This document shows positions 42,422-64,000 of a DNA stretch of 64,000 bases, one piece after another. The notes under the pieces are model-generated. The model was not told where the DNA came from and did no database searches. It was given only the letters and a program-made list of their open reading frames with translations. Origin of the DNA: Raillietiella orientalis. Lineage: Eukaryota. The stretch lies in NCBI GenBank assembly GCA_036172245.1, contig JAYWIR010000092.1, positions 124,001 through 188,000 on the forward strand. Direction: 5' to 3'. Made by a program: the position numbers and the translations under genes. Every line of letters starts with the position of its first letter. The first letter of the stretch is position 1.

Positions 42422-45048
42422 CCCCAAATCCCGCAGGTAGGCGATGCTAAAGGAACCGGTCGCAGAACTGCTGGACCGACTGCTTGAAGCGGTCCCAGTC
42501 CTGAATCGTCCGCATCCTGAAGTTCCGTATGAACGCGCGGAGATGTTCCGCCGCGTCCGGGAACTTCAGTCAGTCCCCTGGCAGACGCCACGCTGACGAC
42601 GGGGGGCCCTTGTCGCGCGGATGCACTTCGAACACGAATCGGCCATGGTCCGACAGCAAGGACGGTAACTTGCCGCGCCTGCCCACGCGAGAGCATAGGT
42701 GCTAGTCAAGGTACACGTGATCGATGCTCCGTTCCATGTCCGTATCTCCGGCCAGCAAGTTGCACGTGTGCATTTGCGCGCACAACTCGTTGACGCGGTG
42801 GTTCAGTGTATCCGGCGCACCTGAAAGCAGGCGCAGGTTGAAGTCACCTGCGATCAGGTGCGCTTTGCGTACACCTGCTTCGATCAGCCAATCGCGTCCG
42901 AGGGCAAGGTAGAATTCTCTTCTTGCCTTCGCCCTCAAAGCGTTATTTCCGCTAGGAGCGTATAGGTTGGTGACGACCAGGTCGATAGAGTCGGACCAGC
43001 TGAGAGTCAGCTGACCGACGCGACCTGCGTCATCGAACCGAACGTCCTTTATTGCGGTCTCGATGGCTGGCCGAAGCAGGAAGGCGACACCGCTTGATAT
43101 CGCGGTGCCGCAACGCCACAACAGCCGCCCACCCGAGATCCGTTCGATCTCCCGGGCTTGATCTGCGGAGATCACGTGGATCTCCTGCAGCAGCACCAGG
43201 TCGAAGGATGCCAGGGTGGCGGTCACGTCACGCCACTTGCCGTCGTCGCTTAGCCCGTTCACGTTCCAACAGGCGATCAGAAGATGACGGCGAGAGGCGA
43301 TTCCCGGCATTATGGCTGGGAAAGTGGCGTCGCGGCACCTGCCGCGGGGCAGGTGTAGGAAAGGTCCATCGGTGCGAGGACCATCGTAACGAGGACGGAG
43401 GCCTCTTCAGGCGCCTGGGGTACCTGTTCGGCCTCCATCCTCACCATCCCCTCCGTGTCCGAGCGTGGAATTCTCTCGGGCGACGGGTCCCGGGAGTTTC
43501 CCACGCTCATGGCACCCTCGCTACCGGAAGCCATCTCTTCCCCTTCGTCGGGGGAGACGATCTTCCGGGGCATTGTGGAATTTCGTCCTGCCTTTTTGCG
43601 GGGTGCTGAGGACATGGATGCTGTGTTTCCGTCCTTCACCTCGGGGTCGGAAGTGGCCGACCCCTGAGGGGAAGCAGGACGCCTGACGGCCTTCTTGCCA
43701 GCCTTGGGAACGGCCGGCTGCAACGAGGCAACCAGTTCCTCCGCGGCGCGCTCCAAGGCGACGTCATCGAGCGTTGGCTCGATGACGGATGCCGCCGCCT
43801 CGTTTCCTTCCTTGTTGACTTTGCCAACGGAGGGTTGAGCAGGGGCAGCAGCAAGTTATTTAGCGCCGCATTCGTCGATGGCGGGAATACCCTCTACGAC
43901 GACGCACCAGCTTTTGGTTTTTTCGCGGCGCGGAGTGGTTTCGCTCCGTTTCGCCACGTTCTTTCCCTTCTTATGGGAGTTTTTCTTGGGTTCGACCTTC
44001 TGCCACCCTGGCTCTTGACCCTCGCTTTCGAACTTTTCGGCGTTTTTCGCCGGAGTCTCGGGGCTGGCCTTCGCCTTTGTGGCGCAGGTGACCTTCTAAG
44101 CAGCAGCACGAGTTGGCATCTTTTTTCTTTTTTTAGCCGCGCTCTTCCTTGCGTTTTTTGCGGACACGACGCGGTCTGTGTTTTGGGGGCACACCAGACG
44201 GGTGTGCCCCGCTTGTTTGCATTGCTGGCACTGCACGCTCGGACACGTCATTTTATGGTGACCAAAGCTGCTGCAGCAGCCGCAGAACTTGGGTGTCCCC
44301 ACGTACCCGACGTCAGTGGACTCACCGTTGACGGTGAGTTTGTGGCGAAACTCACACGCTTCGCGGACCGTTACTCGCGCTGCACCCAGGTTGCCAAGCA
44401 CCCCGTCGTAATCAACAAAAAACGTAGGCTCACCCCACAGCGCGCGGACAGTTGCGAATTTTTCTAATTCGTTCCGCACAGCCTCCTTCGTCATCCGGAA
44501 CGTGATACCGGTCAGGTGAATTATCACCGACCGGTCTTCAGTAATTGGGAGAAGCCTCCGGCTCCCCATAATTACAAGGGTCCGCAGAAGTCTTTGCACA
44601 AGAGTTGCCTCCTTGCAGATAACTTCCACAAATTGTCCCCCGCTTCTGACGGACATAGCCAGAAGCTCCTCTTTTTGTACGCCGAGAACGCGCATCGCCT
44701 GAAAGAAGGCGCGCGCGTTTTCGGGAGAATATAGACCGTCTACCTTATATAGAAGGGGTGGGTTATACCTCTCCTCCAGGTAAGCGCGCATCTTTGCCAT
44801 AGCCGCTGGCGTAGGTGCCGCAGCCACGGGGTTCCAAGCCCTGGGTAAGGCCGAGGGCGCATCCGTGTTGGCGGGAGCCTCCACTGATGCGGAAGCCCCC
44901 ACCTCCATCTCCTCCGGGGGCAATGAGGTCATCGCCCCTGGATCCTCACCGATTGTGGTATCAGGCATTGCTGCCTAATCCACCACCCACACCACGCACA
45001 AGCACCAACGGAAATAAAACTCAGGAGCAGCAAAAAGACACGTCCGCT
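42422..45048 (-). mobile_element. Family D-related LINE 5' half (ORF1 44968-43310, ORF2 EN from 43310)
   Basis: GGACGTGTCTTTTT 5' motif; CGCCSSFGHHKMTC and CQQCKQAGHTRLVC; ACWNVNG, LLQEIH, AGDFN, IDH. Cut at GFG-V. Confidence 0.92.
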
Positions 45049-45147
45049 CGACGCTCCCGAGTCTCTCGGATTGAAGCCTTTTTAAGGCCTTGGTCCGGGA
45101 GTTCTGCAAGCAGTTCCCCTTGAACCGCCTGCCTTCCGGATTCGGCG
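45049..45147 (+). mobile_element. Host ORF2 remnant ending at 'SGFG-V'
   Basis: VREFCKQFPLNRLPSGFG. Confidence 0.85.
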
Positions 45148-47254
45148 TTATAACCCGGATACGCACGGGGCGTTCATTTGTGAACTCTACATGCCTGGTA
45201 CGAGGCCCCATTACGGCCGTAAACACAGGACCTGTCGGGACACCGGGACGCAGCCCGGCGTGGCACTCCCCGTCAACGAAGGGGGATGGGGATAAGACAA
45301 TAAGAAAAATAAAAAAAGAAACAAACAAAAAGAAGTTGGAGGGCAGGGAAGGGATTACTGGTCACTGTGGGAAGGGCCCATCCGTCGAACAAAGCCCTCG
45401 AGGTCTGTCTTCATATTCCCTAGTTCGAGTCATCCGGCAGCTTTCCGTAAAAAGCGTTGGGCATACGGGATGACATCACTCGCCTGTGGATCCACTCCTT
45501 CGTAGTTGACGTCGCTCCATGCCGCCAGGATGCCACGGACGCAGCACAAGGCTGCGATGGCTGCGGCTGACTGCAGTGCGTCCTTCACGAAGAAGGGCCG
45601 AAGAACGTCTCTGGGGGTGCTGCCCGTAGGGAGCCCGAGGGTCGTGCCGAACAGTTCTTAAAGAGGTCGGAGGGCAGCACAATCCACAATAAGGTGGGGA
45701 AGCGACTCCCACTCCCCGCAACTGGCACACGCAGGATCCACAGCTCCCCTCGTCCAGTGAAAGCGGCGCGCGTTGCAGGGTAGACCGCAGTGCAATAGGA
45801 GCAGCGCCGACTCTTGCTACTTGAGGGGCAGGATCCTGGATTCTTTTATCACCAGGGGCCACTTCAGCTCATCCCTGAGGATGGCGAGCAGCTCGCCCCA
45901 CCTCACTAATTTACGCGGCTGGACGCTCGGAGTCATGGCGTTGGCCAGTTCTCCTGTTCTCCAGCCGCTAATCAACTTCTCGCGTCTCTCGATGCAGCAG
46001 GAGACTTGCCACCTTAGCGTCCGGCTGCTGTGAAGTGCCCTCCTCAGGAAAAGCATCGCTGTAGCTAGGCAGGTTGTCTCTGCCTACGTGCATCTTGCTG
46101 AACTCTCCAGGAGATTCCGCAGCGTGCAGCGGGCGTAGGGGCTGCATCGAAGACGATTCCACGTTTCGTGGCTACTCTGGTTTACCACTGCCCACGTTCC
46201 AATATTCTCCTCCAGCCAGGCAGGGGAGTTGGCGGGGCAGCAAACCATGCAGCTGTTCTCCTTGGCCAATGTTGCCTTGCGCCCGAGCAGTACGCCGCAT
46301 CTTCGAATCTTTCGGCCACGGCTCAGAAGAAAAGAAGCAAGTCCTTCGCACCGGGAAACACGGCTGGCCAATAGGCGGGCCGGAGTGCACCAAGGGGAGC
46401 TCCACATCTTCGCTGCGATGGCAAGGGTTCGCCATCGCAGCTGGATTTCCACGCTCTCCAGCGTCAGGATGCTGAGACCGCCGTCTCGACGCGAAGCGCA
46501 CAAGTCATTCAAAAAGACTCGGGGCCTCCCCTTGCCTCAAAGGGCTATGCGGAGGAGGTCCTTTGTCTTCTTCTTTGATTCCACGGTGGGAGAGCAAACA
46601 AAAAGCAAGGGGAGGAGGATGGGCGGCCGCGAAGGCGTTTCGAACCGCGGCCCGTTCGGGCAACTGAAACTTGTCTTCCAGAAACGGGCCGATCGCCGTC
46701 TCGACTTTTTGAAGGCAGCTGGACCACACTTACGCAGGGGAGTAGTCCCCCAACGGCACACCAAGGTACTTGAAGCACCCCGTCGTGAGGATCCCCAGAC
46801 GGACCCAGTCCTGGTGCCATGCTTACGCCGCACCTATTGGCACCACCGACGACATAGCCCTGTTCACCTGCAGTCCGGTCCCGCGGCTGAGCAGATCGAA
46901 GAATTCTCCGATTGCCTTTTCCGGGGTGGACATTGGCAACAAGAGCAGAAGATCGACGGCGTACGCTGCAACGGCGGGCGTGCTGGGGTACGAGCTCGGC
47001 AATGGGGCCAAAGTCACCCTGTACGCTCTCAGCACGAACTCAAAGTAGGTGCTAAAGAGCAAAGGGCTAAGGCTATCTCCCTGCCTTATGTCCCGTCGCA
47101 CCGGCACGCCATGCAACTTGTTACCGCTGAAAGTGACGGTATTCCTCACATTCCGCCAGCAAGAGCGCAGGTGGGAAATCAAGGAGGGTGGGAAGCCCAT
47201 CCGACACAGGAGCTCCAAGAGTAGTTCCTGGTCTACACAGTCGAACGCCTTGTG
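45148..47254 (-). mobile_element. B-related LINE, RT ('HKAFD') to 3' end; flanks the D element on its 5' side
   Basis: IRQGDSLSP, AYAVD; B-type 3'UTR; terminal hairpin at 45148-45178. Confidence 0.9.
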
Positions 47255-47348
47255 CGCTCTAGGGTGGACGTGTTTTCTTGGAGCTCCTCGTGCCAGGAAG
47301 TCTCCCCCAGTGCAAGCGTCGTGTGGTTCGGTTGTCGATCAGGCAGCG

Positions 47349-49010
47349 ATGCCTGACGCGACCACCAGAGATGGCCAGGGGACAGCGGCAACGCCGCCCT
47401 CAGAGGCGATGGAGAGCCAGGGGGCGGCGGCAACGTCGCCCCCAGAGGCGATGGAGGTGGGGGCATCCGCCCCCACAGAATCGGTCCCCGCTACAGCGAG
47501 GGCGTGGAGCGCCGTTGTGTCGGCGCCATCGCCTGCAGCCGCGGCGGAATTGTCGGCCTATGTAGAGGAGGGGTACAAACCCTCATTGTTCTACAAGGTA
47601 GGAAATTTATATTCTTTAGAGAGCGCGCGCGACTTCTCGAAGGGCATGCGCGCTCTCGATGTGAAAGAGGAGGAGCTCAGCGCTATGACCATCCGCAGCG
47701 GGGGTCAGTACGTTGAGGTCATCTGCAAACATGCAGAGCTGGCCCAACGACTGCTTAAAACCCCCGTTGTGATGGGGACGCGCAGGCTTCTCCCCACTAC
47801 GGCGGACCGCAGCATGGTGGTCCACCTGTTAGGCGTGACCGCGCGAATGCGCAAAGAACAGGTTCGCGCCGCTTTGGAACAGTTTGGAACGGTCCACGCG
47901 CAGTGGACGAAAGTTAGTCCTTTCGAGGACTACACGGGGCTGCAACACGGCCTCACTGCTGCGCGCGTGACCGTTCGGGAGGACTGCACTCTTCCCCACA
48001 AACTGGTGGTCGAAGGCGAAACCGTCGACCTCTGGTATGTGGGGAAGCCGAAATACTGTGGCTTCTGCAATACGTCGGGCCACCTCAAAAAGAGGTGTCC
48101 CAATGTGCAGTGCCAAGTATGCGGCACAATGGGCCACACGAGGGAAGTGTGCCCAAAAGCAGCAGTGCGGGTGGTTTCCAAGAGAAACCTTAAAAAACGC
48201 GCCCGGCTTCTGCAGAAAAGACTGGCGGCGAAAGCTACCGCGAAGGCTGTGCCACACGCGCCCAAGACCCAGGCCGCACCCGAGACCCCGGCGACCAACG
48301 CCGAAAAAGTAGAGGGAGCCGGCCAGGAGACTGAGTGGCAAGTGGCAACAGCCAAAAAATCAAAGAAGGAGAGGAGGATGGAAAAGAAAATCGCCTACCA
48401 ACAGAAGAAGAAAGAGCAGGGTAGCGCGATAATTAAAGAGTGCATCGTCGTTGTCGAACGCGTTCTCGATGTTGCCGAACGCTGCCGGAAAGAACTCGCC
48501 GCTACCGACGACCTCCCCTCTGTTGACACAGTCAACAGCGAGGGGAGCGAGCCGGCGGCGGGGTCCGTCATCGACACCACCATCGATGACGTAGCCTTCG
48601 CGCGAGCCGCGGAGGAGCTGGCAGCTTCGTTGCAGCCAGAACCCTCCAAGGCTGGCAAGAAGGCCGTAAGGCGTCCGGCCTCCCCTCAGGAGTACCCCAC
48701 TTCCGACCCCGAGGTGGAGGCCGGAAGCGCAGCCTCCGTTTCTACGGCACCGCGCAAGAAGGCTGGACGTAAGTCCACAAAGCCAAGGAAGCTCGTCTCC
48801 CCCGTGGAAGGGGAAGAGATGGCTTCCGCAAGCGAGGGTGCCATGAGCGTGGGAAACTCTCGGGACCCGTCGCCCGAGAGACTCCCACGCACGGACACGG
48901 AGGGGATGGAGGGGGTGGAGGCCGAACAGGTGCCTCAGGTGCCTGAGAAGGCCGAGACCCCCATGGACATCCCGCCCGCCTCGCAAGAGGAGGGCTCCCC
49001 CACACCTTAA
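47349..49010 (+). CDS. Family D ORF1 protein, open, ~553 aa, two CCHC knuckles
   Basis: CGFCNTSGHLKKRC and CQVCGTMGHTREVC. ATG at 47349 follows the 5'UTR. A 13-codon duplication lies near the N-terminus. Confidence 0.88.
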   Translation: MPDATTRDGQGTAATPPSEAMESQGAAATSPPEAMEVGASAPTESVPATARAWSAVVSAPSPAAAAELSAYVEEGYKPSLFYKVGNLYSLESARDFSKGMRALDVKEEELSAMTIRSGGQYVEVICKHAELAQRLLKTPVVMGTRRLLPTTADRSMVVHLLGVTARMRKEQVRAALEQFGTVHAQWTKVSPFEDYTGLQHGLTAARVTVREDCTLPHKLVVEGETVDLWYVGKPKYCGFCNTSGHLKKRCPNVQCQVCGTMGHTREVCPKAAVRVVSKRNLKKRARLLQKRLAAKATAKAVPHAPKTQAAPETPATNAEKVEGAGQETEWQVATAKKSKKERRMEKKIAYQQKKKEQGSAIIKECIVVVERVLDVAERCRKELAATDDLPSVDTVNSEGSEPAAGSVIDTTIDDVAFARAAEELAASLQPEPSKAGKKAVRRPASPQEYPTSDPEVEAGSAASVSTAPRKKAGRKSTKPRKLVSPVEGEEMASASEGAMSVGNSRDPSPERLPRTDTEGMEGVEAEQVPQVPEKAETPMDIPPASQEEGSPTP

Positions 49011-49527
49011 TCTTCCCCGCAGTAATTCCGGGAATCCCCTCCCGCCGTCGTCTGCGCATCGCCGTTTGGAACGTGAACGCCATGACAGACGCCGGCAGGA
49101 GACGAGACATGGCCGCCCTTCTGGAGTCCTACGACCTTGCGCTGCTGCAGGAGATCCACGTGATCTCTGCAGAACAAGCGCAAGAGATTTCTCACCCGGT
49201 CACGCCGGGGCGTTTATTCCATATAACATAACCAAAAAAAAAAAAGCAATTATACAAAATAAACCAGTTGGGAACCAAACTTCCAACCGACGACTGAACA
49301 AGAATGAAGAGAATATTGCTGGCACGCAGGCCAGAGTAACAGTTTTGTGAACGGTGTGGGGGGGCGGGAAACACAAAGAAACCAAAATAAAATAAAAACA
49401 ATGAATAAGGAGGACGGGATAAGGGTCTTTGGGATCGCTCTGGAAGACACGGGGATAAAAGCATGGGCACCGGAAATTTTATTGAGCGAACGGGGACGGG
49501 GTATGGGTGGGCGAGAGGTCGCAGGGG

Positions 49528-52500
49528 TCACCGGATTACGCCGTTCTCAAAGGTGTGTAAACCGGCGATGTATGCCGGTGATGTCCTCATTCACCTTGTC
49601 ACGAAGATGAGATCACCTTGCAGCCTTCTCCATGAATTGAGCTGCAAGCAGGTGAGCCTCCCTTCGCTGCGATGACAACTCCAGGGCGTAGCGGGCCTTC
49701 ACGATGGCGCGAACGCAACACATGGTTGCGACAATCGCGCCAACCGAAAGTCCATTTCTGCTGAAGAAGCGCCGCAGCACATCAATGGCAGTGCCTCCTT
49801 GTGGCATGATGGCCGAAGTGAGCCTTCGCCACAGTTCACGGAGGTCACCGCAGTCCAACAAAAGGTGCGGAAAAGACTCGATCTCTCCGCACCTTAAACA
49901 GTTTGGCAAAGCAGCTCCCCCGGAAACGATGCTTCGCTGCCTATTACAGTGAAATGCACAATGTAAAAAGAGCAGCACATCTTGTTTCCACTTAAGGGGG
50001 AACACGGAGCTGTCCAAACAAACGGGGGGGACCACTATCTCTCCGGGGGGCACACTTAAATGTTCGCTCCACCGAAGCAGTCCCTTCGCCCGATTCCGAG
50101 GTGTGGCGGCTTGCACCAGCTCCTTTGTCGTCCAGCTGCCGAGGAGCTTACTGACTCCCGCTATTTTGCAGGAGAACTCCCATTCCGCCGGTAGGCAACC
50201 GTCGTTGCTTGCCCTGAGGGCAGACAGCGCTACGGCGAGTGGTGTGGCGGCCAGACGATCCGACAACTTCTTGTCCTGCATGACTTCGTCCATTTGATGA
50301 CTGAGGAGAAGTCGCAGGCGTCGAAGATCATCCGGGCGCGTTCCTTCGGAAGCTGCCCACGATGAAAAAGATTCCTGCCGCCATGCATTAATGTTCATGG
50401 GGCGGCAGGAGATCCAGCTTTGGGCTTCCAGCAGTGAGGACAGCAGCCTCAGCGGGAAGCCAAACCCTATTCTGGTGTGCCGAAAGTGGGGTAGCAACGA
50501 AAGCAGTCCCTCGCTTCCCGTGCAGCGCCTCAGTATAAGGCGTGCGGGTGAGCACCACGGCGTACACCACAGCTTGGCACAGAGCCGCAGCATGCGAAAC
50601 TGCACCTGCAGTTCGATGCTGTTTAAGTCGAGGATGCCCAAGCCTGCATCCTGACGCGGCGCCACCAAGTCTTTAAGTCTAACACGGGATCTTGCAGCGC
50701 CCCACAACGCTTTGCGTAGAAGGCGCTGCGCCCAGACTTTGACTTCCTGGGGGGGTGGACAAACAAAAAAACAGGGGGCGGAGGAGGGGGGCAACGAAGG
50801 TGTTCCAGATGCAGGCCCGTTCCGGCAAGACGAACTCGCCTCCTGAAAACGGGCTAAGTGCACGCTCTGCCTTCCGAAGGCAGTCCGACCACGCTTCTGA
50901 GACGCAGAAGTCGCCCAACGGCACGCCAAGGTACCTGAGGTACCTGCCCGTGGGGATCCCCAGGTCGATCCAGTCGGACTGCCCCTCCCACGTCGCACCA
51001 ACCGGAACAACCATACACTTACTCCTGTTAACGCTCACGCCCGCACCACGACGGATCAACTCAAAGAAATCTTCAAGCGACGCTGTCGGGGTGGACATGG
51101 GCAACAGGAGAAGCAGGTCGTCGGCAGAGGCTGCCACGGCGGGCGTACCTGGACAGGAGCTCGGCAGGTTGGCTAGCGTCAGCCTGTAAGCCTCCAGCAC
51201 CAATTCAAAATAGATGCTGAAGAGCAGCGGGCTTAAGCTGTCACCCTGCCTAATTCCTCGTCGTACCGGCACGCCGTACACGCGACAACCACTGAAAACA
51301 ATGGATGTAATCGCGTGGCGCCAGCAGGAGCGCAAGTACGCCAACAGGGATGCCGGAAGACCCAGACGTTCCAAAAGCTCAAGAAGAAGCTTTTGGTTCA
51401 CGCAATCGAAAGCTTTGTGCAGATCGACTGCAACCGCCAAGGCTCCCGGTGTCTCCCTTTGCGTCCCGCGCCTCCGTCGGTGAGAGATCGAAGGTGTCGC
51501 TTCCGCACGACGATCCACCGCCACACGATGCTGCAATTGCAGCCATGTGCGGATGAACAAGAGATTCGCGTCCATGGACCGCCCAGGAACAGCGTACGTC
51601 TGCTCCGGACTTACCAAGGATTGCGCGATCCTACCCATCCGCGCCACCCAAAGTTTCGAGAACAACTTGACGTCCGAATTCACTAATGTGATCGGACGCC
51701 AGTTGTTCAGTTGGCGCAAATCTCCGCCTTTCGGCAGTAGACGCACCTTCGCTGAGCGAAACGAGGCGGGGACATCGCCCGAGTCTCGCATCAGCGACGA
51801 GAGCTGGAGCACCAGGGGGATGAGCTCCGCCGCAAAACACTGAAAGAATTCCGCGGGGAGCCCATCTTCGCCTGGCGCTTTTCGTCTCTTGAGCCCCGAG
51901 ATGGCCGAGGAAATTTCCTCTGCCGTGAAGGGCTCATCAAGACGCGCGCGTTCCTCCTCGTCTACAACAGGTGCATCAATCGGCAGAAGCAGCCGGGAGA
52001 GGCTGCGTTCTGTCGGTGCCTCTGCATACAGAGAAGAGTAATAGCGCCTGACTATCCGTCGCACGTCGGCTGGAGCCGAGCATTCCCGGTCCTGGTCGTC
52101 GAGCAGAACTGTCGCCCCTGACTGCCAGACCTGGCGCTCGGCCTTGGCCTTGTACTCGGATAATCGACCAACGTCCGCGCGCCTGGAAAAGGAGCGGGCC
52201 TGCAGAGAATCTCTGCTGTTGGCTACGCCCTCTCCGAAGCCGCGCGGAAGCTGGTGCAAGGGAAACCGGCAGCAGAACTCGCGGACCGATCTTTTCAGAT
52301 CGTCCCAGTCCTCGAGCTCACTTATGGCAAAGCCGAGGAGGTACTGGCGAAGATGCTCAGCCGCCTCCGGGTGGCTTAGCCAGTCTGCCGGCATCCTCCA
52401 AAAACAGTTTGGAGGCCCCTTGCCTGGCGGGAGCACCTCGAACTCGAGCCTGTTGTGGTCTGAAAGCACGGACGGCACGGGACCTCTCCGACCCACTCGA

Positions 52501-53120
52501 CAGAGCAAGTGTTCATCAAGGTATACGTGGTCCGGCGTTGCTGCTATAACAGGGTCGCTAGCGAACAAGTTGCACGCGTGCACGGACGCGCACATCTCTT
52601 CCGCTAGCAACTTTTCCCTTTTGTGGGATCTAGTCTCGGAAAGCAGGTGGACGTTAAAGTCCCCCGCAATGAGATGGGCCACAGTAGGGTGAGATCGAGT
52701 GAGCCACTGGCCTTGAAGGGTACCGAAGAACTCAATCCTTTCGGCCCATCGTCCAGCACCGCTCGGCGCGTACACGTTGGTTACGACAAGGTCGATCGAG
52801 TCGGACCACTGGAGTACAAGCTGTCCCACTCGGCCTTCCGTGTCGAAACGAACGCTGCGCACCGCTCCCGCCAAAGTTCCTCGCACGAGGAAAGCGACGC
52901 CGCACGTACGTGCAACGCCGCACCGATAAAGTAGCGTTCCGCCCGCGCGCCGTTCGATTTCGGCAGCCTGCTCTCCGGAGATGCTGTGAATCTCCCGCAG
53001 GAGCGTCAAGTCGAAGGCGCGCAGAGCGTCAGCCACTAGTCGCCTCTTCTCCTCGTGTTGGAGCCCGTTGACGTTCCAAGACGTTACGGCAACACGACGA
53101 GAAGACGCGATTGCCCTCAT
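49528..53120 (-). pseudogene. Family C ORF2 (EN + RT + Cys motif); SADD in place of YADD, frameshift at ~50765, late stop
   Basis: ORFs 50679-53123 and 49613-51010: TSWNVNG, AGDFN, GIRQGDSLSP, CLRCGEIESFPHLLLDC. Confidence 0.92.
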
Positions 53121-53792
53121 CACGGCTGGGAAAGCGAGGCCGTGGTGCGCGCCTCACCCGGCGAGCGGGCAGTAAGCAGCACGACGGGCTGGAGGGCGCG
53201 GTCGCCACCGGCCTCAACTGTGCTGCACGTAATCGGGTGCTCCTCCCCGGGTGCAGAACCTGTGGGTTCCGGGGTGAGCACTCGCAGTTCCGCGGCGAGT
53301 GTGTCACGCCTCAGGGCTTCAGCCCTGCGGGCGCTCGCTCCCGCGCGAGTTACGCGTCGTTCAGCTGCGTTATCGGACTCCTTTGCGAAGTCTGATGCTC
53401 GCACGATCGACGGGCGCTTGCATCCGTCCGATTGCACCGGAATGGTCTTCTCGGCGGTCACAGAAGCGGACTTGCACGCGTTGAAGGCGTTGGCTTTTTC
53501 CTTGGAAGAGTCACAAGCCGCGCGTGTTTTCGTATTCGCGCGACTGCTTTTTCCTTTGGAAGAGCTCAGGGATGGAGGTTGCGGAGCTTTCTTTGGAGAT
53601 TTTTCTTTCCTCCTCTCCACAACCTTCCATTTGCCTTCGCGATTTTCGGAAGCTTCCGCGACAGTAGTTGCATAAAACCTCCGGGATTTTCGCTGCGTTC
53701 TCTGGGGGCGTTGCTTTCGCTACGCCTTTAAAAGGCGGCAACGGAGTCACCTTCTTGACAGTCGGGAGATCGCTCCGCTCCTGCCGAGTCGG
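53120..53792 (-). pseudogene. Family C ORF1 C-terminal part
   Basis: Continues from 59414 across the A insertion (...SPTRQ|ERSDL...) and ends LSQP* overlapping the ORF2 ATG. Confidence 0.85.
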
Positions 53793-53962
53793 TGAACTTG
53801 CTCCGCGGCTCGAAGTATTGTGCGCTTGACAACTTAATCAGTTCATTGTGCTCGTGTGTGCCCGGAAAGGGGAAGTTTTCCAGAAGAAACAAAAAAAGAA
53901 GCGGCGAGGAGATCGCGGCAAAAGACCTGCAGTGGTCCCGTGCAGCAAGACCAGCTGCCAGG

Positions 53963-55750
53963 ATGCAGGCACCTAGAAGAGGAGTGGATAGACCGTCGTC
54001 CCCCATGGAAGCCATGGAGGTAACGTGCGGCAACGGCGAGGCGGTGGCAGGCATGCCGAGGATCGCGCCCGCGGCGGGCTTTGCTGCGCCGGCGGCGGCG
54101 ATGCCAAGGGTCGTGCCCGCGGCGACGACGGCGGAGGTCGTGCCCGCGTCGGCGACGCCGAGGATCGTGCCCGCGGCGGGGAAGGTCGCGCCTGCGGCGG
54201 CGATGCCGAGGGTGCCGCCCGCGGCGGTAACGGCGGCAACGTCGAGGTTTGCGCCCGCGGCGGTGGCGTCCCAGGCGGGACCCGCGGGCGTCCACGCGGT
54301 GCAGGGAGCGACGCCATCTTGTTCGGCTGCGGCGTCGCAGCCCTTTTCTTATGTGTCGGTGGCGGCTGGACAGGCGAGTGTCCACCCACCTAGGAAATTC
54401 GGTAAGCCGCTTAGCGGAAAAGTACTAAAAGTGGACCGACCAATAGTGGAAATAGGCCCCAACGTGAAGCCCATTATCTTCAAGACGGGGCTAATAAAAT
54501 TTAATAACATCAGGGAGGTCTATTTGTCCCTCGACAAGACGGACATAGACTTTGATCGCATTCAGGCGATCATTCCATCAAACAACGGGTTCACAGACTT
54601 TACAGACTGTGGAAACATTAGAGAGCGATTGATCCAGAAGGGGATCAATATACAAGGACGGATGGTTTGTGGTATTGGCGAGATGCCATACACAACCGTC
54701 TTTTTAAACGGCATCTCCATCCTCACAGCGCAACTAGCAGTGTGGAATTACTTGGAGCAGTTTGGGGAAGTTCTGGACCTTGATTTCCAGAACTTCTCTG
54801 GAAACATATTTTCTGGCGACATGATCGCCAAGATGAAGTTGAGGGAGGGAGCGGTGATCCCTGGATTGGCCGTTATTGACGAACAATCCCAGGGAGTGAA
54901 TGTGCGTTACCGGCAACAACCGGTATTCTGCACCGGGTGCAAGCAGTTCGGCCACAGGGCCGGGGCTTGCCCAACGTGTCGTTGTTTCCGCTGCGTCAAA
55001 GTAGGACATCAAGTCCGAAACTGCCCGCAGCCGGAGGTGTGCTCCTTCTGCAAGAAACACGGACATGCGAAATGGGGCTGTCCGGAGTTTGAAAACTGCA
55101 GAAGGATTCGAGGTCTCTCTCCCGTGAGAGAGAGAAACATCAAGGAGGCCGAGCAGCCTCAGAAGGCAGGAAGGCAGAAAAAAGTGAAAGAAGCCGTCCC
55201 GGTGTCGGCGGACGGCTTCATAGAAGTGGGAAAGAAGGGAAAGAGGAGGATGCTCGTCAAGGAGCAAGGAACTCCTCAAATCCTGGAAGCACCAGAGCAG
55301 GAAGGCGAGAAGATGGAGGTAGCGCAGGAAGGCGCGAAGGAAGAGAGACAGGAAGCCACTAAAGTGTCGCAGGAAGCTCTGCAGACTACGGAGGAGTTGG
55401 CAACACTGGCGGAGGAGATCATGGAGGTGCAGAGCGGTCCTCAGCAAGAGAAAATCTTGCAGAAGATCTGCACTGCACAAGAGAACATCAACCAGGTTGT
55501 GGAGGTCGCTGAACGCGAGAAGTTAGAGGAACAGCTTCTCGACGTGAAGGCGAACTTCTGCGCCAAAGTCGAAATAGAGGCGCTATCTCGAAAATTGATC
55601 GCGCAGGCGGAACACTCTACGGAGGAGGCGGAAATTACCGACCTCACAGGTACGGAGAGTGACGCCGGCAGCGAGAATCCCGCTGCTTCTTCATTGTCTG
55701 GAAGAGCACGCTCTCTCAGACAGAAGAAGCTCAGGAAGGCCAAAAAATAG
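53963..55750 (+). CDS. Family A ORF1 protein, open; Ala/Pro repeats and three CCHC knuckles (start codon uncertain)
   Basis: CTGCKQFGHRAGAC, CFRCVKVGHQVRNC, CSFCKKHGHAKWGC. Confidence 0.88.
   Translation: MQAPRRGVDRPSSPMEAMEVTCGNGEAVAGMPRIAPAAGFAAPAAAMPRVVPAATTAEVVPASATPRIVPAAGKVAPAAAMPRVPPAAVTAATSRFAPAAVASQAGPAGVHAVQGATPSCSAAASQPFSYVSVAAGQASVHPPRKFGKPLSGKVLKVDRPIVEIGPNVKPIIFKTGLIKFNNIREVYLSLDKTDIDFDRIQAIIPSNNGFTDFTDCGNIRERLIQKGINIQGRMVCGIGEMPYTTVFLNGISILTAQLAVWNYLEQFGEVLDLDFQNFSGNIFSGDMIAKMKLREGAVIPGLAVIDEQSQGVNVRYRQQPVFCTGCKQFGHRAGACPTCRCFRCVKVGHQVRNCPQPEVCSFCKKHGHAKWGCPEFENCRRIRGLSPVRERNIKEAEQPQKAGRQKKVKEAVPVSADGFIEVGKKGKRRMLVKEQGTPQILEAPEQEGEKMEVAQEGAKEERQEATKVSQEALQTTEELATLAEEIMEVQSGPQQEKILQKICTAQENINQVVEVAEREKLEEQLLDVKANFCAKVEIEALSRKLIAQAEHSTEEAEITDLTGTESDAGSENPAASSLSGRARSLRQKKLRKAKK
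54052..54270 (+). repeat. Degenerate GC-rich coding minisatellite (MPR[IV]xPAA... units)
   Basis: About 5 PR-x-x-P-AA units; a similar array with fewer units lies at ~20730-20880. Confidence 0.8.
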
Positions 55751-55763
55751 GTCTTCCCCTTTT

Positions 55764-58700
55764 ATGGCCTCTTCCCTATCGACCGCCAGGAGGATAAACA
55801 TCGCCTCCTGGAACGTAAACGGTGTGGTCGACCAGGTAAAAAGAAGAAGGATTGTGCGGACCATCGCACAACAAGACATCGTGTGCCTGCAGGAGACCCA
55901 CAGGATGGGTCTCGAGATAAGCCAGCGAATAGAACGGCGATTCAACGGGCAGATGTTCGTCAACGAAGGAGAACGGAACACGAAGGGTGTGGCGGTGCTA
56001 ATAAAGAACAACTTAGCCCCCACTATTCTGGAAGTGTTCTGTCCCCAACCCGGACGAATCATCGGCGTGCGACTGGCCTGGTCCGCGACTGTTCACTTTA
56101 TCCTGGTGAACGTGTACGGGCCGCACAGGCTAAAACATCGTTGTGCGGAGGCGCTGCATGCAACACTCCGGCAAAAGGTCGCCCCTAAGGACGTCGTGAT
56201 AGTTGCTGGCGATCTCAACATCTTGGATGAGATCATTCATTCGGAAGACGCCAGAGGAAGGACGGCGAATCGACGGCTATCCGAGGAGTTCGGACTGGTC
56301 TGGCGAACAGCAAGCCACAAGCCAATCGATCACGTCCTGCACAGCACCGAACTTGGGAACCGCATCCAGGGGTTTCGCGACACTATGACTACGGTGTCCG
56401 ATCACCCCCTGGTGCGGTTTTCCCTAAGAACGGAGAATCCTCGACGGAGGCAAGGCACCAGGGCGGCGCTCATCAGCATGCCCGCCTGGTTCGAAACCCA
56501 TCCCGGACATCAGGCTGTCCTGGAGGCGATTCTGAGGGCAACAACAATCCGAAGAGTCGCCGACTGGGACAGCCTGAAACACAGGATACACCTGTTTGCG
56601 AACATGCAGTTCGGGGATAGGCGCTTGAGGCAAAAGGCGTACCAAGAGCTGAACATCCAAGATCGCTCCCTCTCAAAGTACTTCGATCAGTACGAGAGTC
56701 GGTACGTCCTCAATAACATAAAAGGGGAAGTCGGCGTGCTGGAGAAGAGAAATCTGGCAACAGATATCTTCTGCATCCAGTACGACGGCCAAAAGCGACA
56801 GTCGTCTGAGGACATCGTGGATGCCTTTCACAGGCATTACACGAAACACTTCAGGCGACAACAGCTGTGTCGCTCTAGTCAACAGGCCTTCTTGAGCTAT
56901 CTCGAGAAGAGGACCGACGACCTCCAGCGGAACAGACTGGAGGAGGAGTTCTCCGAAGAAGAGGTGAAGACTGCGTTTGGGCAACTACGCAAGGACGTGG
57001 CAGCGGGCCCTGACAGTGTACCCATCTCTCACTATCAGCGGTACTTGCATGCCTACCTGCGTTTGTTCCACCAGTTGACCCTCTGCATCCGTGAAGAAGG
57101 AAGACTTCCACAGTCCTTCTACGAGAGTCGGATGAGATTGTTGCCAAAAGGAGGCGACCTCACGCAGGTCGCTCAATGGAGGCCAATCTCGATCCTGAAC
57201 TCGGATGCCAAGTGGTTGGCGAAGATCTGGTCCAACCGCTTAGGCAAGGTCATGTTGAGGCTCATCTCTCCGGTCCAAACGTGTGCAATCCCTGGACGTT
57301 ACATGTCGGACAATGTCAAGTGTGCTTAGGCCACCGTCGGACTCAGCCGATACGTCGGCGAGAACCTGGCGCTGGTGTTCACTGACATGGAGAAGGCCTT
57401 CGACTCCATCGACCATGGGATGCTGCTGAAGTTTCAGGAGAAGCTAGGCCTTCCGGAACACTTCAGCAACTTCGTGAGGGCGGTACTCCAAAACCAGTAC
57501 TGCCGAATCGAAATCAACGGCCAGGAGACGGCAGCAATCCGGATGGAACGGGGAGTCCGGCAGGGCGATTCGCAAAGTCCGATGATGTTCGTCATCTACA
57601 TGGAGGCGTTGTCGTCCTCTATCGAGAAGAGCGGACGACTGCAAGGCATAATCATAGATTCCGAGCGTCTTACCCATCTGCATACGCTGATGATCCACTC
57701 TTCTTTATCAAGAGAGAGAAATCAACGAGCGTTTCTGGATGTGGTAGACCTGATGGATCAAGGCCTGGGTCTAAAGATCAACGCCCAGAAAAGCCAGCTT
57801 TTGCCCGTTGAAATCTTCGATCTCTCCACTCTAGCGGGGAGAGGATTCCGAACGGTGGACAAGGCCATGTACCTGGGTGTCTACATTGGCGACGTCTCCT
57901 CGTCGAAGCTATTGTGGACCGAGATCCTAGGGAAAACGGCCAAGGAAGCAGCCAAGTACACCCGAACGGACCTTGGAATGAAGCGAAAGGCCAATATATG
58001 GAACGGAGTACTTTTTCCAAAAGTGCTCTTCGGGGCGGTCTCCGCTAGGATGAACAAGGACACTACTAGGGAGTTCGACAAGCTGCAAAGAAAAACACTC
58101 TGGGGCCACTATCGCCCAAGAGTAAGACTGAAACCCCTGTGTCGTCCCAGGGAAGAAGGAGGTTCCGGGATGAAGTCGCTTGCACATTCCATGGAAATCA
58201 TGGATACGCGACACATCCTGGACATTGCCACTTACTGGGATGACTGGCCGTATGCGGCGCACAGGGCCTACGCGTTGTTGCTTAACAACTCGAAAGGCCT
58301 GATGACTGCGCTGCTAGGCCGAGCAGGCAAATGGAACAAAATCGACCCCACCTGGACGAGGAAGCAACGGCTGGTGCGGAAGCACCAAATCAAGATCGTG
58401 CCGCGAAGCTGGGAACTCTGGCAGAACGAGTCCATCCTGGTGATCCCTTGGTTGCTTCCTGTCCCGCCGGACACGAGAAGCTGGATCTACCAGCGGTCCA
58501 GAGTTACCCTACTGCAATTCCAAGAGTGGAGGCGAGGAGGCTACCTACATCAATCTCGTATACTTCGGTATACAGAGATGATGTTAGGAAGGTTTGCCCA
58601 CAGGACCCGCGAAGTGTGGTTCAACCACAACGACTTCGCATGGTCGAGGGTAACCAGAACAAACCTCCGAAGGCTCATCCAAGAAAACGACCGTGACACC

Positions 58701-59279
58701 AGTGCCCTCCAGGAAGCCACCGTACGCTATGGGAGTGAACGGTTCAACCTGTTAGCGATCGGCACGACGCTGTGGAGGAGCGACCTTCCGCCGGGCACCC
58801 AGAATGACCTCCTGATGTATTATCACGGAGGAATCCAGAGTGGGTCTTGATTGCAGCACTTCACAGGAAGACGGGAAGACCGAGACTGCGCAGCATGTGG
58901 AGACGACGACACGAGACTTCACGTCTTGACGTGTCCCACACTCCTGCATGACTGGCTGATCCTGGAAAGGATCATAGGACTTACCAACAAGTCCGTTATG
59001 GAGATCCTCGCCGGGATGTTTCATGGGGATGGTAATGTTCCCTGTTACAATCCCATGGTGAGGACGACCATAGCCCTCTTCATCACCGCCATACTTGTGC
59101 GGTGGTGGAAAATGAGGAAAGCCAGGAGAACCGCACCACCGATGGAGATCCTACAAGGGCTCTTGAAGAGGGAAATCGGCATCAGGAACTGCGGGAAGAT
59201 CCACGCCTGGACGTACCGATTCATCCTGAAGAGGATCCAGGACGACGCCCGGGACCATCCAGCTGGAATTCCCCCCTGA
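55764..59279 (+). pseudogene. Family A ORF2; stops at 57329 and 58850, local frameshift removing YADD at ~57680
   Basis: ORFs 55659-57329, 57375-58850 and 58851-59279. The TACGCTGATGAT sequence is out of frame. Confidence 0.93.
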
Positions 59280-59413
59280 AAAGCAGAACTCTAGTGCAAC
59301 CCAAGGACCCCCAAGTGCAAACTGTTTGTATTGAGTGAATGAGAGTGCGAATGTAAATTTCGTATTTTTGTTGAAAAATAAACTTACCCCACCCCTTGTG
59401 GGACTTGGGGAAA

Positions 59414-60659
59414 CCTGCCGAGTCGGCGATAGGGCGACTGCATGCAGCGTGCTTTTGCTCGTTGCGACGCTGCTTTTTACGGCTTTCGTAGCCTTTTTAG
59501 TGGGGCCTGCGCTGCAGTGGGGCTGTCCGGAACTCGGAAGGGACAACGGAACGGGGCAAGAAGTCTTTGCACTGTTGCGATCTTCCTGTTTTCCTACCTT
59601 TCCCTCCAGGGTGTTACGGAGATTTCCTGGTTCCAGGTTCGGAAAGGTGCCTGCGAGTTCGGCAGAGAGGGAAGGCACGGCACGCGTCAAAGCCTCGCGC
59701 CCCTTTTTAATTGGCTTCCCCGCCGTGACTTTCCCCTTTCGGGGCGTTGCGGGCGGGGATGCTTTCTTTTTATCCGCGGATCGCTCGTGGTTTTTTTCGA
59801 GTTTTTGCGGACGACGTTTTTTATTTGCGGCTGCGGCTTTTTGTGCAGTGGTCTCTTGAACCCGACGAATTTCCGCTGCGGCTCTTTTTCTTGCAAGTAC
59901 CGGGCACTTCTTGATTTCGTGCCCGGAATCTTTGCAATAGCGGCATCTTGGAGAGGGGCACTCTTTAATTCGGTGCCCATCCTTGCCGCACTGCTCGCAC
60001 GCGCGAGTCTGGCCTAGGAACCACAGGTGAACGACCGTGCCGTTCACCTGCAGCTGCTCAGGCACAACACGCCTGTTCGCGACGGTGATCCTCGCGGAGG
60101 CTTGTCCAATGTGGACAGAGGGGAAATCCTTTAAAGGATTTGGCCTCCTCCACAGAGCGTGCACGGTGGCGAACTTCGCCAGCACACTTACGACATCGCG
60201 GTCGGAGATTTCCGGTTCGATGTCGCACAATTGAACGACAAAAGAGTCGTCCATCGCGGTAGGTAGGACTTCCTTGCCATTGATGGTCAACGGCGTACGG
60301 AGAAGGCGCTGCACAAGTGCTGCGTTCTTGCACCGAATCTTCGTGTATTCCATCCTGCCAGCAGGCATTGTGGCAAGGAGTTCCTCCTCGCGAACGCCTA
60401 TCCGGACGAGCTCATCATTGAGCTCACGACCGATTCTCCCGTTAAGTGGCCCACTGACCTTATAACGGAGTGCAGGCATGTATCCTGATGACACATATGC
60501 CTGGAACTCCGCATCGCAGGGTCCTGGTCTTTGGGAGGTAACGACGGCGTAACTCCTCACCGGGGGCGAGGAACCCATTACGGAGGATGCGGCCACTTCA
60601 AGTGCAGCTGAAGTGCATCCAGTGGCTTGCTCCTCCACACTATCCTGTGTACTGGCCAT
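59414..60659 (-). pseudogene. Family C ORF1 N-terminal part
   Basis: CEQCGKDGHRIKEC and CRYCKDSGHEIKKC. Confidence 0.9.
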
Positions 60660-60788
60660 GTTGAACTATGCTACTTGGCAGATTGCACAGGAACACACAA
60701 GTGCGAGCAAAAACGCAGGCACAAAGTTGCCCGATCGTTGGCGCGGAAAGACGCGGAAACACGTCTGCACTGTACGAGCGCAAGAGAT

Positions 60789-63700
60789 CGAACGGATCTC
60801 CGGAGGGCGGCTATGGTACAGGTGTGGAAGAGCGAAAAGTTGCGATGTCGCCTACCTGCTTCGGCCAGCCGTCGAGGCCGCGGCTCGGGGCGTGCGGTTC
60901 GACGATCACGGTCGTGTCGGCCAGCTGACTCTCAGGTGGTCCGACTCGATCGATCTGATCGTCACGAACGTGTACGCACCGAGCGGCAAGGACCTGATGA
61001 ACAGGAAGGCGAGGAAAGAGTTTTTCCTTGTCCTTCGGCGAGACTGGCTGACCGAAGCAGGCGTGCGGAATGCCCATCTGGTTGCAGGCGATTTCAACGT
61101 TCGCCTGAAACCAGATGAGCAGAATCCCGAGCGTGACCTGGTCAACGAGGTGTGCATGGCGGTGCACACCTGTAATCTGTTGGTCAGTGCACCGGGGATG
61201 AAAGACAGCATTGACCACGTGTTTCTTGACGAGCAACTGTGCCCTCGCGTGGGCAGCCGCGGCAAGTTACCGTGCGAGCTGTCCGACCATCGCCCGCTAG
61301 TCCTCGAAATCCTTCCGCGCGACAGGGGCCCCCCCTCGTCAGCGTGGCGTCTCCCAGGGGACTGGCTGATGCTCCCGGACGCGGCGGAACATCTCCGCAC
61401 GTTCATACGGAGCTTCAGGCTGCGGACACTCCAGGATTGGGACCGCTTCAAGCGGTCGGTCCAGGAGTTCTGCGACCAGTTCCCTCTGCACCGCCTACCT
61501 ACGGGTTTTGGGATCAAGGCTTGTAACGAACGAGCCTATCTGCAGGCCCGCCGTTACGTTAGGACCCCCGACATCCGCAGGCTGGCGGAATACAACGCGG
61601 GAGCCGAGAGGCAAGCCTGGCAGTCCGGATCGGCCAGCTTGCTGGACGATCAGGGCCAGGAGCACTCGGCAATCGCCCAAATCCGCGGCTTGCTGCGGAG
61701 TTACTACTCCTCCCTGTATGCCAGGGCACCTCCGGAGAGGAACGTCTCACGACTCCTGCTTCCGGAAGGCGCTCCAGCGATCGGGGAGGAGCAGAGAAAG
61801 ACCCTCCACGAGCCTTTCACGATGGACGAGATCCTCTCGGCCATCGGAAAGCTCAAGAGGCGAAAGGCTCCAGGGGACGACGGCCTGCCCGCGGAGTTTT
61901 ATCAAACTTTCGCGGCTGAGCTTACCCCCCTGGTACAGCAACTCACCTTGCTGATACGCGAAACAGGTGACGTTCCCGCCTCGTTTCGTTCGGCAAAGGT
62001 GCGGCTCCTCCCTAAGGGAGGAGATCTGAGGAGCATGAACAACTGGCGTCCCATCACAATAGTGAATGCGGACGCTAAGTTGGTGGCTAAGGTTTGGGCA
62101 GAGCGTCTGGGACGGGTTGCCAACATCTTCATCAGCCCGGAACAGACATATGCTGTTCCCGGGCGAAGCATGGAGGCGAACCTTTTCCTCGCTTCCACCT
62201 ACCTAGAGCTCCAACATGAAAGGAGCTTGGTGCGCAGCCGGAATTCCGGTGCGTGCGCCGCAAAGGGGTTGGATGGTCGGGTGGGTGAGGGAGCCCTTGC
62301 GGTCGCAATCCACTTGCGAAAAGCATTCGATTGCGTCGACCAGAATCTCCTTCTGGTGCTTCTGGAACGCTTGGGCTTCCCAACCTCATTAGTGGCCTAT
62401 CTGCGCTCCTGCTGGCGCGACGCGCTCATCAATGTTACTTTCAGCGGACAGACCGTGCACGGCGTGCCGGTGCGGCGTGCGATCCGGCAGGGAGACAGCC
62501 TGAGCCGCTTGGTCTTCAGTACCTACTTTGAGTTGGTACTGAGAGCGTACAGGGGAACTCCGGCGCACCTGCCGCACGACTGTGCCGGTACGCCGGCTGT
62601 TTCAGCATACGCGGACGACCTTCTGCTGCTGCTCCCTATGTCCACCCCGGCTGCGGCGGTCGAGGAGTTCTTCGACCTGCTGCATCGGGGAACCGGACTT
62701 ACGGTGAACAGGGCGAAGTCGTCCGTGATGCCAGTTGGTGCGGCGTGGGCAGAGCAGCAGGACTGGGTCCGTTTTGGGATCCCCACGGTGAGGTACTTCA
62801 AGTACCTTGGTGTGCCGTTGGGGGACTACTCCCCTGCGGAAGCGAGGTCCGGCTGCCTTCAAAAAGTAGAGACGGCGATCGGCCCGTTCCGAGGCGGCAG
62901 GTTTTTTCTACCTGAACGGGCCGCGGTTTGGAATACGTTCGCGGCTCCTCTCCTCCGCCCCCTGCTTTTTGTTTGCCCCCCCACAGAGAGGATTGAAAAG
63001 CGGACAAAGGACCTCCTCCGTATCGCCCTTTGGGGCAACGGGAGGGCCCGAGGCCGCTTAAAGGACTCGTGCGCTCCTCGTCGGGATGGTGGTCTGGACC
63101 TCCTGACGCTGAAGCGGCTGGAGCTTCAGCTCCAGTTCCGCTTGTCGGCACTCGTTCCAGAGTTGTGGTGCACCTTTTGGTGCGTCCCTGCACGTCTTCT
63201 TCTCCAGCAAGCCACCGTCAAGACGGGACTGACGTCGTTTCTTGCACTCCGTCGCCGCGTCAACCGATGCGGACTCCAGCTACGGAGGGTGGCTGCGCTG
63301 TATCGGAAAAACCCAGGATTGCTCACCTGTCGCCCGTTTAACGGTAGTGCCTGGTTGCAGGAAACCGTTTGAACGTGGGGACAGTTCGGCATGCAACGCT
63401 CCCAACAGGAACGAAGGTTCCTGTTTGGGGGTTACAGAAGTTGCACGCTCCGCGAGATCCTGGAGGATCCAAAGAAGAGAGCGTGGGCAGGAAGAACCGC
63501 CCTCGCTGCTGCGCTGCCCTCCCTGATGGAAGATCTGGACAGCAATGTTGCGGCGAAGTGGGTGGTTACAGTAACAATCTCCGGAAAGGAGAAGAAGATA
63601 GGAGAGTGAAAGACGGGCCAGTTAACAGACGCTGCGACCCGGAGTACGCCTCCCAATGGACTTCTGCGCTGGGGCGCGCTGCTCGATGTTCCCATTGAAC

Positions 63701-64000
63701 ATCTGAAGTGGCCCCCGGTGCTCATGAACACTTCCGCCCTCCCCTTAAAATGGCAGGAGTCGGCTCTCCCGTTGCAGCACTGGGGACTCTTCTGCAATGC
63801 CCGCCGACACCACTGGACCTGGGGAGCGGTGGACCCCAATTGCGTCAGGTGTGGGGAACGGGAGTCCCTCCCCCACCTGCTAGTGGATTGTGTTGCCCTT
63901 CGGCCCCTTTGGTTTCGCTTTGCCGCGGCCATCGGAATCCCCTGCGGCAACCCCAGGGACGCACTGAAAGCCCTCTTCGTTGCTGACGCCCTTCGGCCAG
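60789..64000 (+). pseudogene. Family D ORF2 resumed (EN, RT with intact YADD; stops from 63372)
   Basis: AGDFN, SIDH, LSDH, AIRQGDSLS, AYADD, CVRCGERESLPHLLVDC. Confidence 0.92.

Follow-up and report, generated by a model that had tools for sequence, protein, structure and literature searches.

The 64,000-nucleotide window analyzed here, the whole stretch from position 124,001 to position 188,000 of contig JAYWIR010000092.1 in the Raillietiella orientalis assembly GCA_036172245.1, contains a stack of long interspersed nuclear elements (LINEs) inserted one inside another on alternating strands: a minus-strand host carries element D (plus), D carries C (minus), and C carries A (plus). As a nest, this stack is ordinary, nested transposons being common. 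Less ordinary, and a moderately interesting lead, is that the same nucleotides in the genes of other LINEs have been struck repeatedly, in antisense orientation, by copies that diverged under selection. Target site duplications (TSDs), the restoration of reading frames on excision, identical junction nucleotides, a selection signature between paired copies, and an orientation bias were all observed. The explanation that we favor, with a probability of about 0.68, is target-primed insertion in which each family prefers its own antisense motifs within the coding sequence of other LINEs.

The layers of the nest are given below in window coordinates, with the two open reading frames of each element named ORF1 and ORF2 and the domains of ORF2 abbreviated APE (apurinic/apyrimidinic endonuclease) and RT (reverse transcriptase).

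45048-45147, plus strand: R, a 100-bp ORF2 remnant (about residues 275 to 307) ending ...LPSGFG, recognized by translation and the 5'-end motif.
45148-47254, minus strand: host, a J/D-group LINE from its 3' end to the HKAFD codons of ORF2 (about residue 579), placed by tblastn map, junctions, and family assignment.
47255-47263: nine nucleotides, CGCTCTAGG, at the D 5' junction, matching neither the host nor the shared 5'-end motif.
47264-49188, plus strand: D, left part, with the 5' end, ORF1, and the start of ORF2 up to ...EQAQEI.
49177-49188: left copy of the C TSD, AGCGCAAGAGAT.
49189-53792, minus strand: C, 3' part, with the 3' end, ORF2 (APE and RT), and the end of ORF1, from Pfam and tblastn.
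53793-59413, plus strand: A, a 5,621-bp LINE with ORF1, an ORF2 with APE and RT, and a 3' end reading ...GGGGAAA.
59414-60776, minus strand: C, 5' part, with the N-terminal 400-odd codons of ORF1, two CCHC knuckles, and the 5' end at 60776.
60777-60788: right copy of the C TSD, AGCGCAAGAGAT.
60789-64000, plus strand: D, right part, with ORF2 from ERISGG... in one frame, running off the window.

Both inner elements are flanked by perfect duplications, as an earlier note on this DNA had proposed. Within ORF1 of C, element A lies between copies of CCTGCCGAGTCGG at 53780-53792 and 59414-59426 that agree at 13 of 13 positions, the match extending neither way; the left copy is formed by the last 13 nucleotides of the 3' part of C. 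Within the endonuclease of D, element C lies between two copies of AGCGCAAGAGAT that agree at 12 of 12 positions. Among 2,000 random pairs of window positions, with both boundaries free to slide 15 bp, only 2 showed a flanking direct repeat of at least 12. The elements are full copies flanked by TSDs and free of terminal repeats, as is characteristic of LINEs. A and C belong to different families, with 27 to 29% identity in ORF2.

The earlier note also held that excision restores the interrupted frames, which proved exact for D and partial for C. Removal of C with one TSD copy joins D ORF2 as ...LLQEIHVISAEQAQEI|ERISGGRLWYRCG... in one frame, and the rejoined protein (...ISAEQAQEI|ERISGGRLWYRCG...) is collinear with the N terminus of C ORF2 (...ISGEQAAEIERRAGGTLLYRCG...). 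When A is taken out with one TSD copy (5,634 nucleotides, divisible by three), C ORF1 reads through the joint without a stop; about 60 to 150 nucleotides past it, however, the frame changes, and the full ORF1 is not regained. Because the tail resembling D ORF1 goes on in another frame past the joint, C ORF1 has a frameshift of its own. The 3' end of C at 49189 reads ...AATAAACGCCCCGGCGTGACCGGGTGAGAA. D ORF1 is open from the ATG at 47349 to the stop at 49010. Both A and D carry in-frame repeats in the N-terminal part of ORF1, which are Ala/Pro-rich tandem arrays with periods of 27, 36, and 48 in A (54053-54264) and two copies of a 42-nucleotide repeat in D (47374-47456).

The outer junctions were likewise as the note had described them. 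The host reads ...HKAFD up to 47254, so that D adjoins a minus-strand RT at KAFD; the nine unmatched nucleotides that follow are read as filler of the D 5' junction, and after them comes the D 5'-end motif GTGGACGTGT, which is common to five other elements. In the form G.GGACGTGT, this motif opens D, G, J, K, and Y, and C has a variant form. At its other side, the host 3' end at 45148 (...CCGGGTTATAA, which may also be written ...AACGCCCCGTGCGTATCCGGGTTATAA) adjoins the GFG codons of R, which reads ...EFCKQFPLNRLPSGFG; the left border of R is the 5' end of a minus-strand element, K. Because the D 3' end is expected near 64.4 to 64.6 kb, past the end of the window, no D TSD in the host can be read directly. 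The placement of D within the host stands on the D 5' junction and on a second D-like 3' end at HKAFD (see below), and the 3' side of D would pass into the host beyond the window. Public contigs provided further views of these joints, all from one run (share 0.47; 8 of 156 aligned pieces) that may be the source sample itself; two further runs yielded no aligned pieces, and no RNA run containing this DNA was listed. A contig of the host family continues past the position of 47254 as AVDL|HKAFD, an uninterrupted relative of the host; a 595-bp contig spans the joint between the A 3' end and C, 287 of its letters lying on one side and 308 on the other; and another ends at 60775, one base before the C 5' end.

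The layers differ in decay. A ORF2 has one internal stop (TAG, 57327-57329) in 1,083 codons; this stop was considered as a family trait and rejected, since the older copy A' (see below) carries CAG at that position. In C, each ORF contains one frameshift, that in ORF2 lying near residue 800, where D stays in one frame; D ORF2 has 2 stops in 1,075 codons; and the host, over about 600 codons, shows 6 stops and a frameshift. Contig depth at 97% identity or more was 5 to 37 for A, 9 to 19 for C, 2.5 to 10 for D, and 0 to 1 for the host. Because damage rises outward and contig depth falls in the same order, the nest and an insertion order of R(+), host(-), D(+), C(-), and A(+) are supported, and TSDs, frame rejoining, damage, and depth agree on the layering and relative order that the note had read from the sequence. 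Damage and depth give a relative order and no layer dates, for which a whole-genome family consensus is needed.

A second, older stack, E(-) > D'(+) > C'(-) > A'(+), occupies the opposite end of the window (2-7474).

2-4210, plus strand: A', an older A-family copy, 88.6% identical to A nucleotides 1413 to 5621, with 10 stops.
4211-5447, minus strand: C', C-family ORF1 and 5' part, 91.7% identical to C nucleotides 128 to 1362.
5446-6214, plus strand: D', a D-family ORF2 fragment (residues 350 to 454, 88.6% identical to D) with a 454-bp 3' untranslated region (UTR), ending ...CCGAGTGAAA.
6215-7474, minus strand: E, C-group ORF2 from residue 583 to residue 165, whose antisense start, TCGAACGCCTTGTG, encodes HKAFD.

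Positions 2-5447 align with 55205-60649 in a single alignment (89.3%) that spans the A 3'/C junction and is followed by a 315-bp D-like piece (88.6%). C' begins with TCTGCCGAGTCGA, the counterpart of the A TSD, and the A' 3' end stands at the same C-family ORF1 nucleotide as that of A. An A-family element fills this site in each of the two C-family ORF1 copies of the window, and no empty version of it was found there. In E, the D' 3' end lies on (A)TCGAACGCCTTGTG, which encodes HKAFD in antisense, and the D 5' junction in the host ends on ...TCGAACGCCTTGTG; because the two junctions frame the same 14-mer, a 14-bp TSD of TCGAACGCCTTGTG is implied. Both occupied HKAFD sites match CACAAGGCGTTCGA perfectly, whereas each of the four unoccupied sites found (in J, C, H, and F) carries one or two mismatches.

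A third recurrent site involves the host family and the codons of GFG, with two junctions in addition to the one at R.

17985-18705: a plus-strand 3' end at 18612 (...CCCGGGTGGCAA) adjoining a 93-bp minus-strand ORF2 remnant, ...HRLPREFG.
37227-42422, plus strand: J, a J-group LINE whose 3' end, ...CCCGGGTGACAA, lies in K directly after the GFG codons.
42423-45047, minus strand: K, a D-group LINE that J interrupts at the GFG site, retaining the 5' end and ORF2 as far as ...LPAGFG.

The 3' ends at 18612 (plus), 42422 (plus), and 45148 (minus) coincide to the nucleotide: each directly follows GG(N)G in the codons for GFG, at about ORF2 residue 307, in three different targets that are all antisense. 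Written in antisense, the GFG site is C.CC[AG]AAT[TC]CC. Copies whose independence is supported by the comparisons below were found at one target nucleotide at three sites, with 2, 2, and 3 events, a pattern seen in target-specific elements and here drawn from a small sample. Eleven 3' junctions were mapped in all; the target strand could be read for ten of these, and the insertion was antisense to it in nine (two-sided p = 0.021), or in seven of eight when A' and D' were left out (p = 0.07). Because the targets are antisense, the alternating strands of the stack are explained, and they are probably not an accident.

The repeated junctions could instead be DNA copies of old events, in which ordinary nesting was followed by segmental duplication (of A'/C'/D' at 2-6214 and of the three GFG junctions) and by later deletions. 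A continuous 5.4-kb alignment at 89.3% across the A/C junction with a D-like piece at 88.6% behind it fits such a copy, as do the similar divergences of the three layers (A, 11.4%; C, 8.3%; D, 11.4%), and other rearrangements lie near, including a palindromic joint near 37031 and a 92% repeat (8097-8802 and 17297-18002). However, a duplication at the DNA level would make all divergence neutral, and a ratio of nonsynonymous to synonymous substitution (dN/dS) below 1 therefore argues for independent hits. For A versus A' ORF2, dN/dS was 0.38 (bootstrap, 0.30 to 0.48), with out-of-frame controls at 0.76 and 1.17, and differences at codon positions 1, 2, and 3 numbered 99, 80, and 151 (p = 4.6e-6); the identity of this pair is also uneven, at 82.5% in the ORF1 tail and 89 to 90% in ORF2. 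J versus the host gave 0.31 to 0.38, and J, although about 25% diverged from the host, keeps 613 codons free of stops. The outermost elements of the two stacks come from different families: E is 73% identical to C and 57 to 61% identical to D, J, K, and F, which places it in the C group, and the host is 77 to 78% identical to J and D and 63 to 67% identical to C and H, which places it in the J/D group. For this reason, E (6215-7474) was rejected as a duplicated form of the missing 5' part of the host. At the third GFG junction, the target flanks (66 of 93 positions identical, 71%) are more diverged than the inserted 3' UTRs (239 of 287, 83%). The 10 stops of A' in 1,083 codons are about what 6 to 8% of neutral decay predicts, and the similar layer divergences would follow if the older stack was built from older masters of each lineage. 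Although the inconclusive pairs described below speak for it, duplication is unlikely as the source of the repeated junctions.

Several other observations weigh against a family-specific preference for antisense motifs, in addition to the similar layer divergences. The number of events per site is only 2, 2, and 3, and the sample is one window. Selection is less clear in the remaining pairs: dN/dS was 0.80 (0.38 to 2.03) for D versus D' and 0.69 (0.42 to 1.27) for i versus J, both inconclusive, and 0.48 (0.32 to 0.71) for C versus C', only moderately below 1. The C'/D' junction (C nucleotide 128, D residue 350) differs from that of C/D (C nucleotide 1, D residue 66), and it requires one deletion of about 0.9 to 1 kb under any model. 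F sits in E in the same orientation. H, of the C group, entered G about 26 nucleotides from the point at which C entered D, and the C group is at best regionally selective, not strictly site specific. The 5' flank of J is a plus-strand ORF1 fragment and not the rest of K, so the J insertion cannot be closed by a TSD; the flank had been considered as a continuation of K from its reading 'TGFVGV', which the ORF1 fragment led us to reject. No shared motif was seen among the target sequences of different families, and a 3' hairpin of 4 pairs showed no compensatory change and no covariation.

Some of these points would also be expected if insertion were untargeted and the shared sites and antisense bias arose by chance, or from a loose nick-site preference, in a neighborhood that is about 85% LINE. 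At least 51,467 of the 64,000 bases, or at least 80%, are LINE derived (tblastn with the C and A ORFs plus self-comparison), H in G, F in E, and I in H lie at unique places, and a common target motif was not seen. Chance of this kind would have to put three junctions on one nucleotide and two more on another in targets of about 6 kb, to fill only the perfect HKAFD 14-mers while four mismatched ones stayed empty, and to turn nine of ten junctions antisense, which makes it quite improbable. Misassembly, with repeats wrongly joined and the layers being chimeric contig joins, is a still more remote prospect. The region is highly repetitive, short-read contigs stop at element ends (for example, at 60775), and the sole public run with this DNA may be the source sample; but wrong joins do not make perfect duplications of 12 to 13 bp at element termini or restore a frame on excision, and one contig bridges the A 3'/C junction. 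Targeted, target-primed insertion is the reading carried forward here.

Other copies and joints in the window bear on the recurrent sites or on the history of rearrangement. A third, distant A-like element (18706-21130, minus strand) retains only its 5' half, 68.7% identical to A nucleotides 104 to 2479; it breaks off on its 3' side at the 93-bp GFG remnant, and because an ORF2 piece of the same strand borders it on the 5' side, it does not lie in a C-type ORF1. No alignment was obtained for the 5' junction of this element (18706 to about 21130). The 11 nucleotides between a 3' end at 34606 and a 5' end at 34594 were considered as a fourth GFG remnant and dropped as too short to claim. Many fragment ends fall at ORF2 residues 346 to 364, around LLDDQ (5446, 15196, 17202-17300, 36299, and 40073), and the closest metagenome protein, P0001 (64% identity), also starts at LLDD; this region is possibly another hot spot of insertion or truncation. 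The repeat at 8097-8802 and 17297-18002 consists of two copies of a 706-bp stretch of minus-strand ORF2 that are 91.9% identical, against the 60 to 79% typical between families; the two are either a pair from one young family or the product of a local duplication. At the palindromic joint (36954-37110), plus-strand ORF2 residues 581 to 606 are followed by minus-strand residues of about 597 to 570, which places the HKAFD region in both orientations; a 116-bp plus-strand ORF1 fragment (37111-37226) comes next, before the J 5' end. Two minus-strand ORF2 pieces (15140-15196 and 17202-17258), about 88% alike and overlapping by about 50 nucleotides, lie on either side of the plus-strand element I (15201-17201); they are either a target duplication of I in H, aged and of unusual length, or parts of two different elements. 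Mosaics of fragments occupy 17202-18023 and 36299-37226.

From 45 kb to the end of the window, and over most of the remainder, the DNA consists of retrotransposons without long terminal repeats, with copies nested over tens of kilobases. Pfam identified Exo_endo_phos (PF03372) and RVT_1 (PF00078) in ORF2 of A, C, and D, with the APE domain N terminal and the RT domain after it, the order found in LINEs. Among solved proteins, human L1 ORF2p gave the best match to C ORF2, with E values of 2.4e-45 for the RT and 1e-4 for the endonuclease, and R2 proteins matched the C RT at an E value of 6e-15 or weaker; the closeness of the RT to L1 is a similarity among solved LINE proteins and not a phylogeny. 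Distant database homologues combine APE, RT, and zf-RVT domains at identities of at most 31%, except for one metagenome fragment at 64%. The ORF1 proteins contain CX2CX4HX4C knuckles, two each in C and D and three in A, and PF00098 scored 19.4 bits in C ORF1, just below the cutoff of 20.8. A Cys/His motif can be read in the C-terminal translations of ORF2 in C (CLRCGEIESFPHLLLDC) and D (CVRCGERESLPHLLVDC); PF13966 (zf-RVT) was reported for the distant homologues only, and Pfam reported it for none of the window proteins. Judged by these sequence features, the elements are APE-type, L1-like LINEs with a CCHC ORF1. Rfam gave no match in the window, a metagenome scan with the A 3'-end pattern gave none, a metagenome scan with the ORF2 profile gave five loci at 22 to 41% identity of which none was informative, and the protein Atlas returned generic APE and RT clusters only.

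LINE DNA in the window has a G+C content of 55 to 61%, compared with 43.5% in an anonymous stretch of 9.3 kb (21667-30993) that is the sole large non-LINE exception. This stretch had no Pfam match in its 8 ORFs, no Rfam match, and no notable repeats, and it may be the original non-LINE genomic ground. Bordering it is a weak plus-strand LINE (30994-32148; 51% G+C) with ORF1 and endonuclease pieces 24 to 43% identical to C, which is probably the oldest copy in the window. The observed/expected ratio of CpG was 0.85 to 1.11 in every part, including the old copies, and because no part is depleted there is no sign of methylation-driven CpG decay.

The elements end in short, fixed 3' termini (...GAGAA, ...TATAA, ...GACAA, and ...GGGAAA) with the TSD directly next to them, and no long poly(A) or A-rich tail was found. 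Each ends 24 to 31 nucleotides past a conserved AATAAA, in a terminal motif ...AACGCCCCGG..CCGGGTGA.AA; across the A, C, D, and J/host family 3' ends, the terminal motifs are ...GGGGAAA and ...AACGCCCC(N8-10)CCGGGT.A.AA. AATAAA before a 3' end is not known to be a poly(A) signal of chlorophytes, which would set these elements apart from Zepp (see below). For single folds of the 3' end, z was -0.7 in C, which is not significant, and -1.6 in A, a weak signal.

In the mechanism that we propose, target-primed reverse transcription would have brought in each layer. The sense strand of the target would be nicked at the site and would prime on an RNA with the fixed terminal motif, and a second nick 12 to 14 bp from the first would leave a TSD of 12 to 14 bp. 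The site would be chosen by the APE endonuclease, as in Tx1L and R1Bm, or by annealing of a read-through RNA. C-family ORF1 would hold the single site of the A family, and D-family copies would go into the 14-mer that specifies HKAFD in the RT. For the J/host family, the entry point would be the nucleotide that follows the GFG codons, in the stretch that separates the endonuclease from the RT, and C-group elements would enter the endonuclease region. Preferences of this kind would repeatedly rebuild the same doll order. An extension of this proposal is a guild in which each L1-like family reads a conserved antisense coding motif of another, a mutual parasitism from which LINE-only stacks of fixed order and alternating strands would assemble themselves; we consider this guild about as likely as not.

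If a genome-wide count confirms the site preferences, these would be APE-type LINEs that use the conserved coding sequence of their relatives as a safe-haven target. Such a strategy would limit damage to the host genome and explain the growth of LINE-only chromosome domains, and it would make available for study natural endonucleases whose recognition sites are long and G+C rich. The elements could find a refuge in a domain that targets itself, or such a domain could be a compartment resembling a centromere, which has been proposed for Zepp clusters. The window also shows that strand alternation within a nest can signal target choice instead of chance.

A keyword search of the open-access literature found no chain of LINE families in which each targets a fixed antisense motif in the coding sequence of other autonomous LINEs; a search of this kind cannot establish that none has been published. 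Like human L1, the window elements have two ORFs, insertion attributed to target-primed reverse transcription, and TSDs of similar length; unlike human L1, they have CCHC knuckles in ORF1 and no poly(A) tail, and their junction sites are G+C rich and recurrent instead of TTTT/AA. The Zepp and ZeppL elements of green algae are described as L1-type LINEs in nested clusters of tens of kilobases, with a G+C content of 61% against 53% for the genome in Coccomyxa, and as forming one cluster per chromosome at putative centromeres (PMC3446292, PMC8226300). The window resembles them in nesting and composition, its LINE DNA at 55 to 61% G+C lying beside anonymous DNA at 43.5%, and differs in that several families (27 to 29% up to about 75% identity) take part and not one. 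Target-specific LINE families are reported to use multicopy genes, transposons, microsatellites, or telomeres, most of the APE-type ones belonging to the Tx1 or R1 clade (PMC4640811), and Tx1L of Xenopus laevis is described as integrating within the transposon Tx1D to give composite elements (PMC1950540). As in these target-specific Tx1 and R1 LINEs, the window elements combine APE and RT domains and appear to enter one sequence within a repeated target; like the 'stringent' LINEs, they have a fixed 3' terminus without a long poly(A), and the CCHC knuckles of ORF1 are shared with the Tx1 clade, a likeness by features. Unlike those of Tx1L, the TSDs in the window are 12 to 14 bp and the specificity rests on 2 to 3 events per site, read from sequence alone. 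The targets also differ from that of Tx1L: in the window they are coding motifs, on the antisense strand, of LINEs that are themselves autonomous, and several families seem to target one another in a chain.

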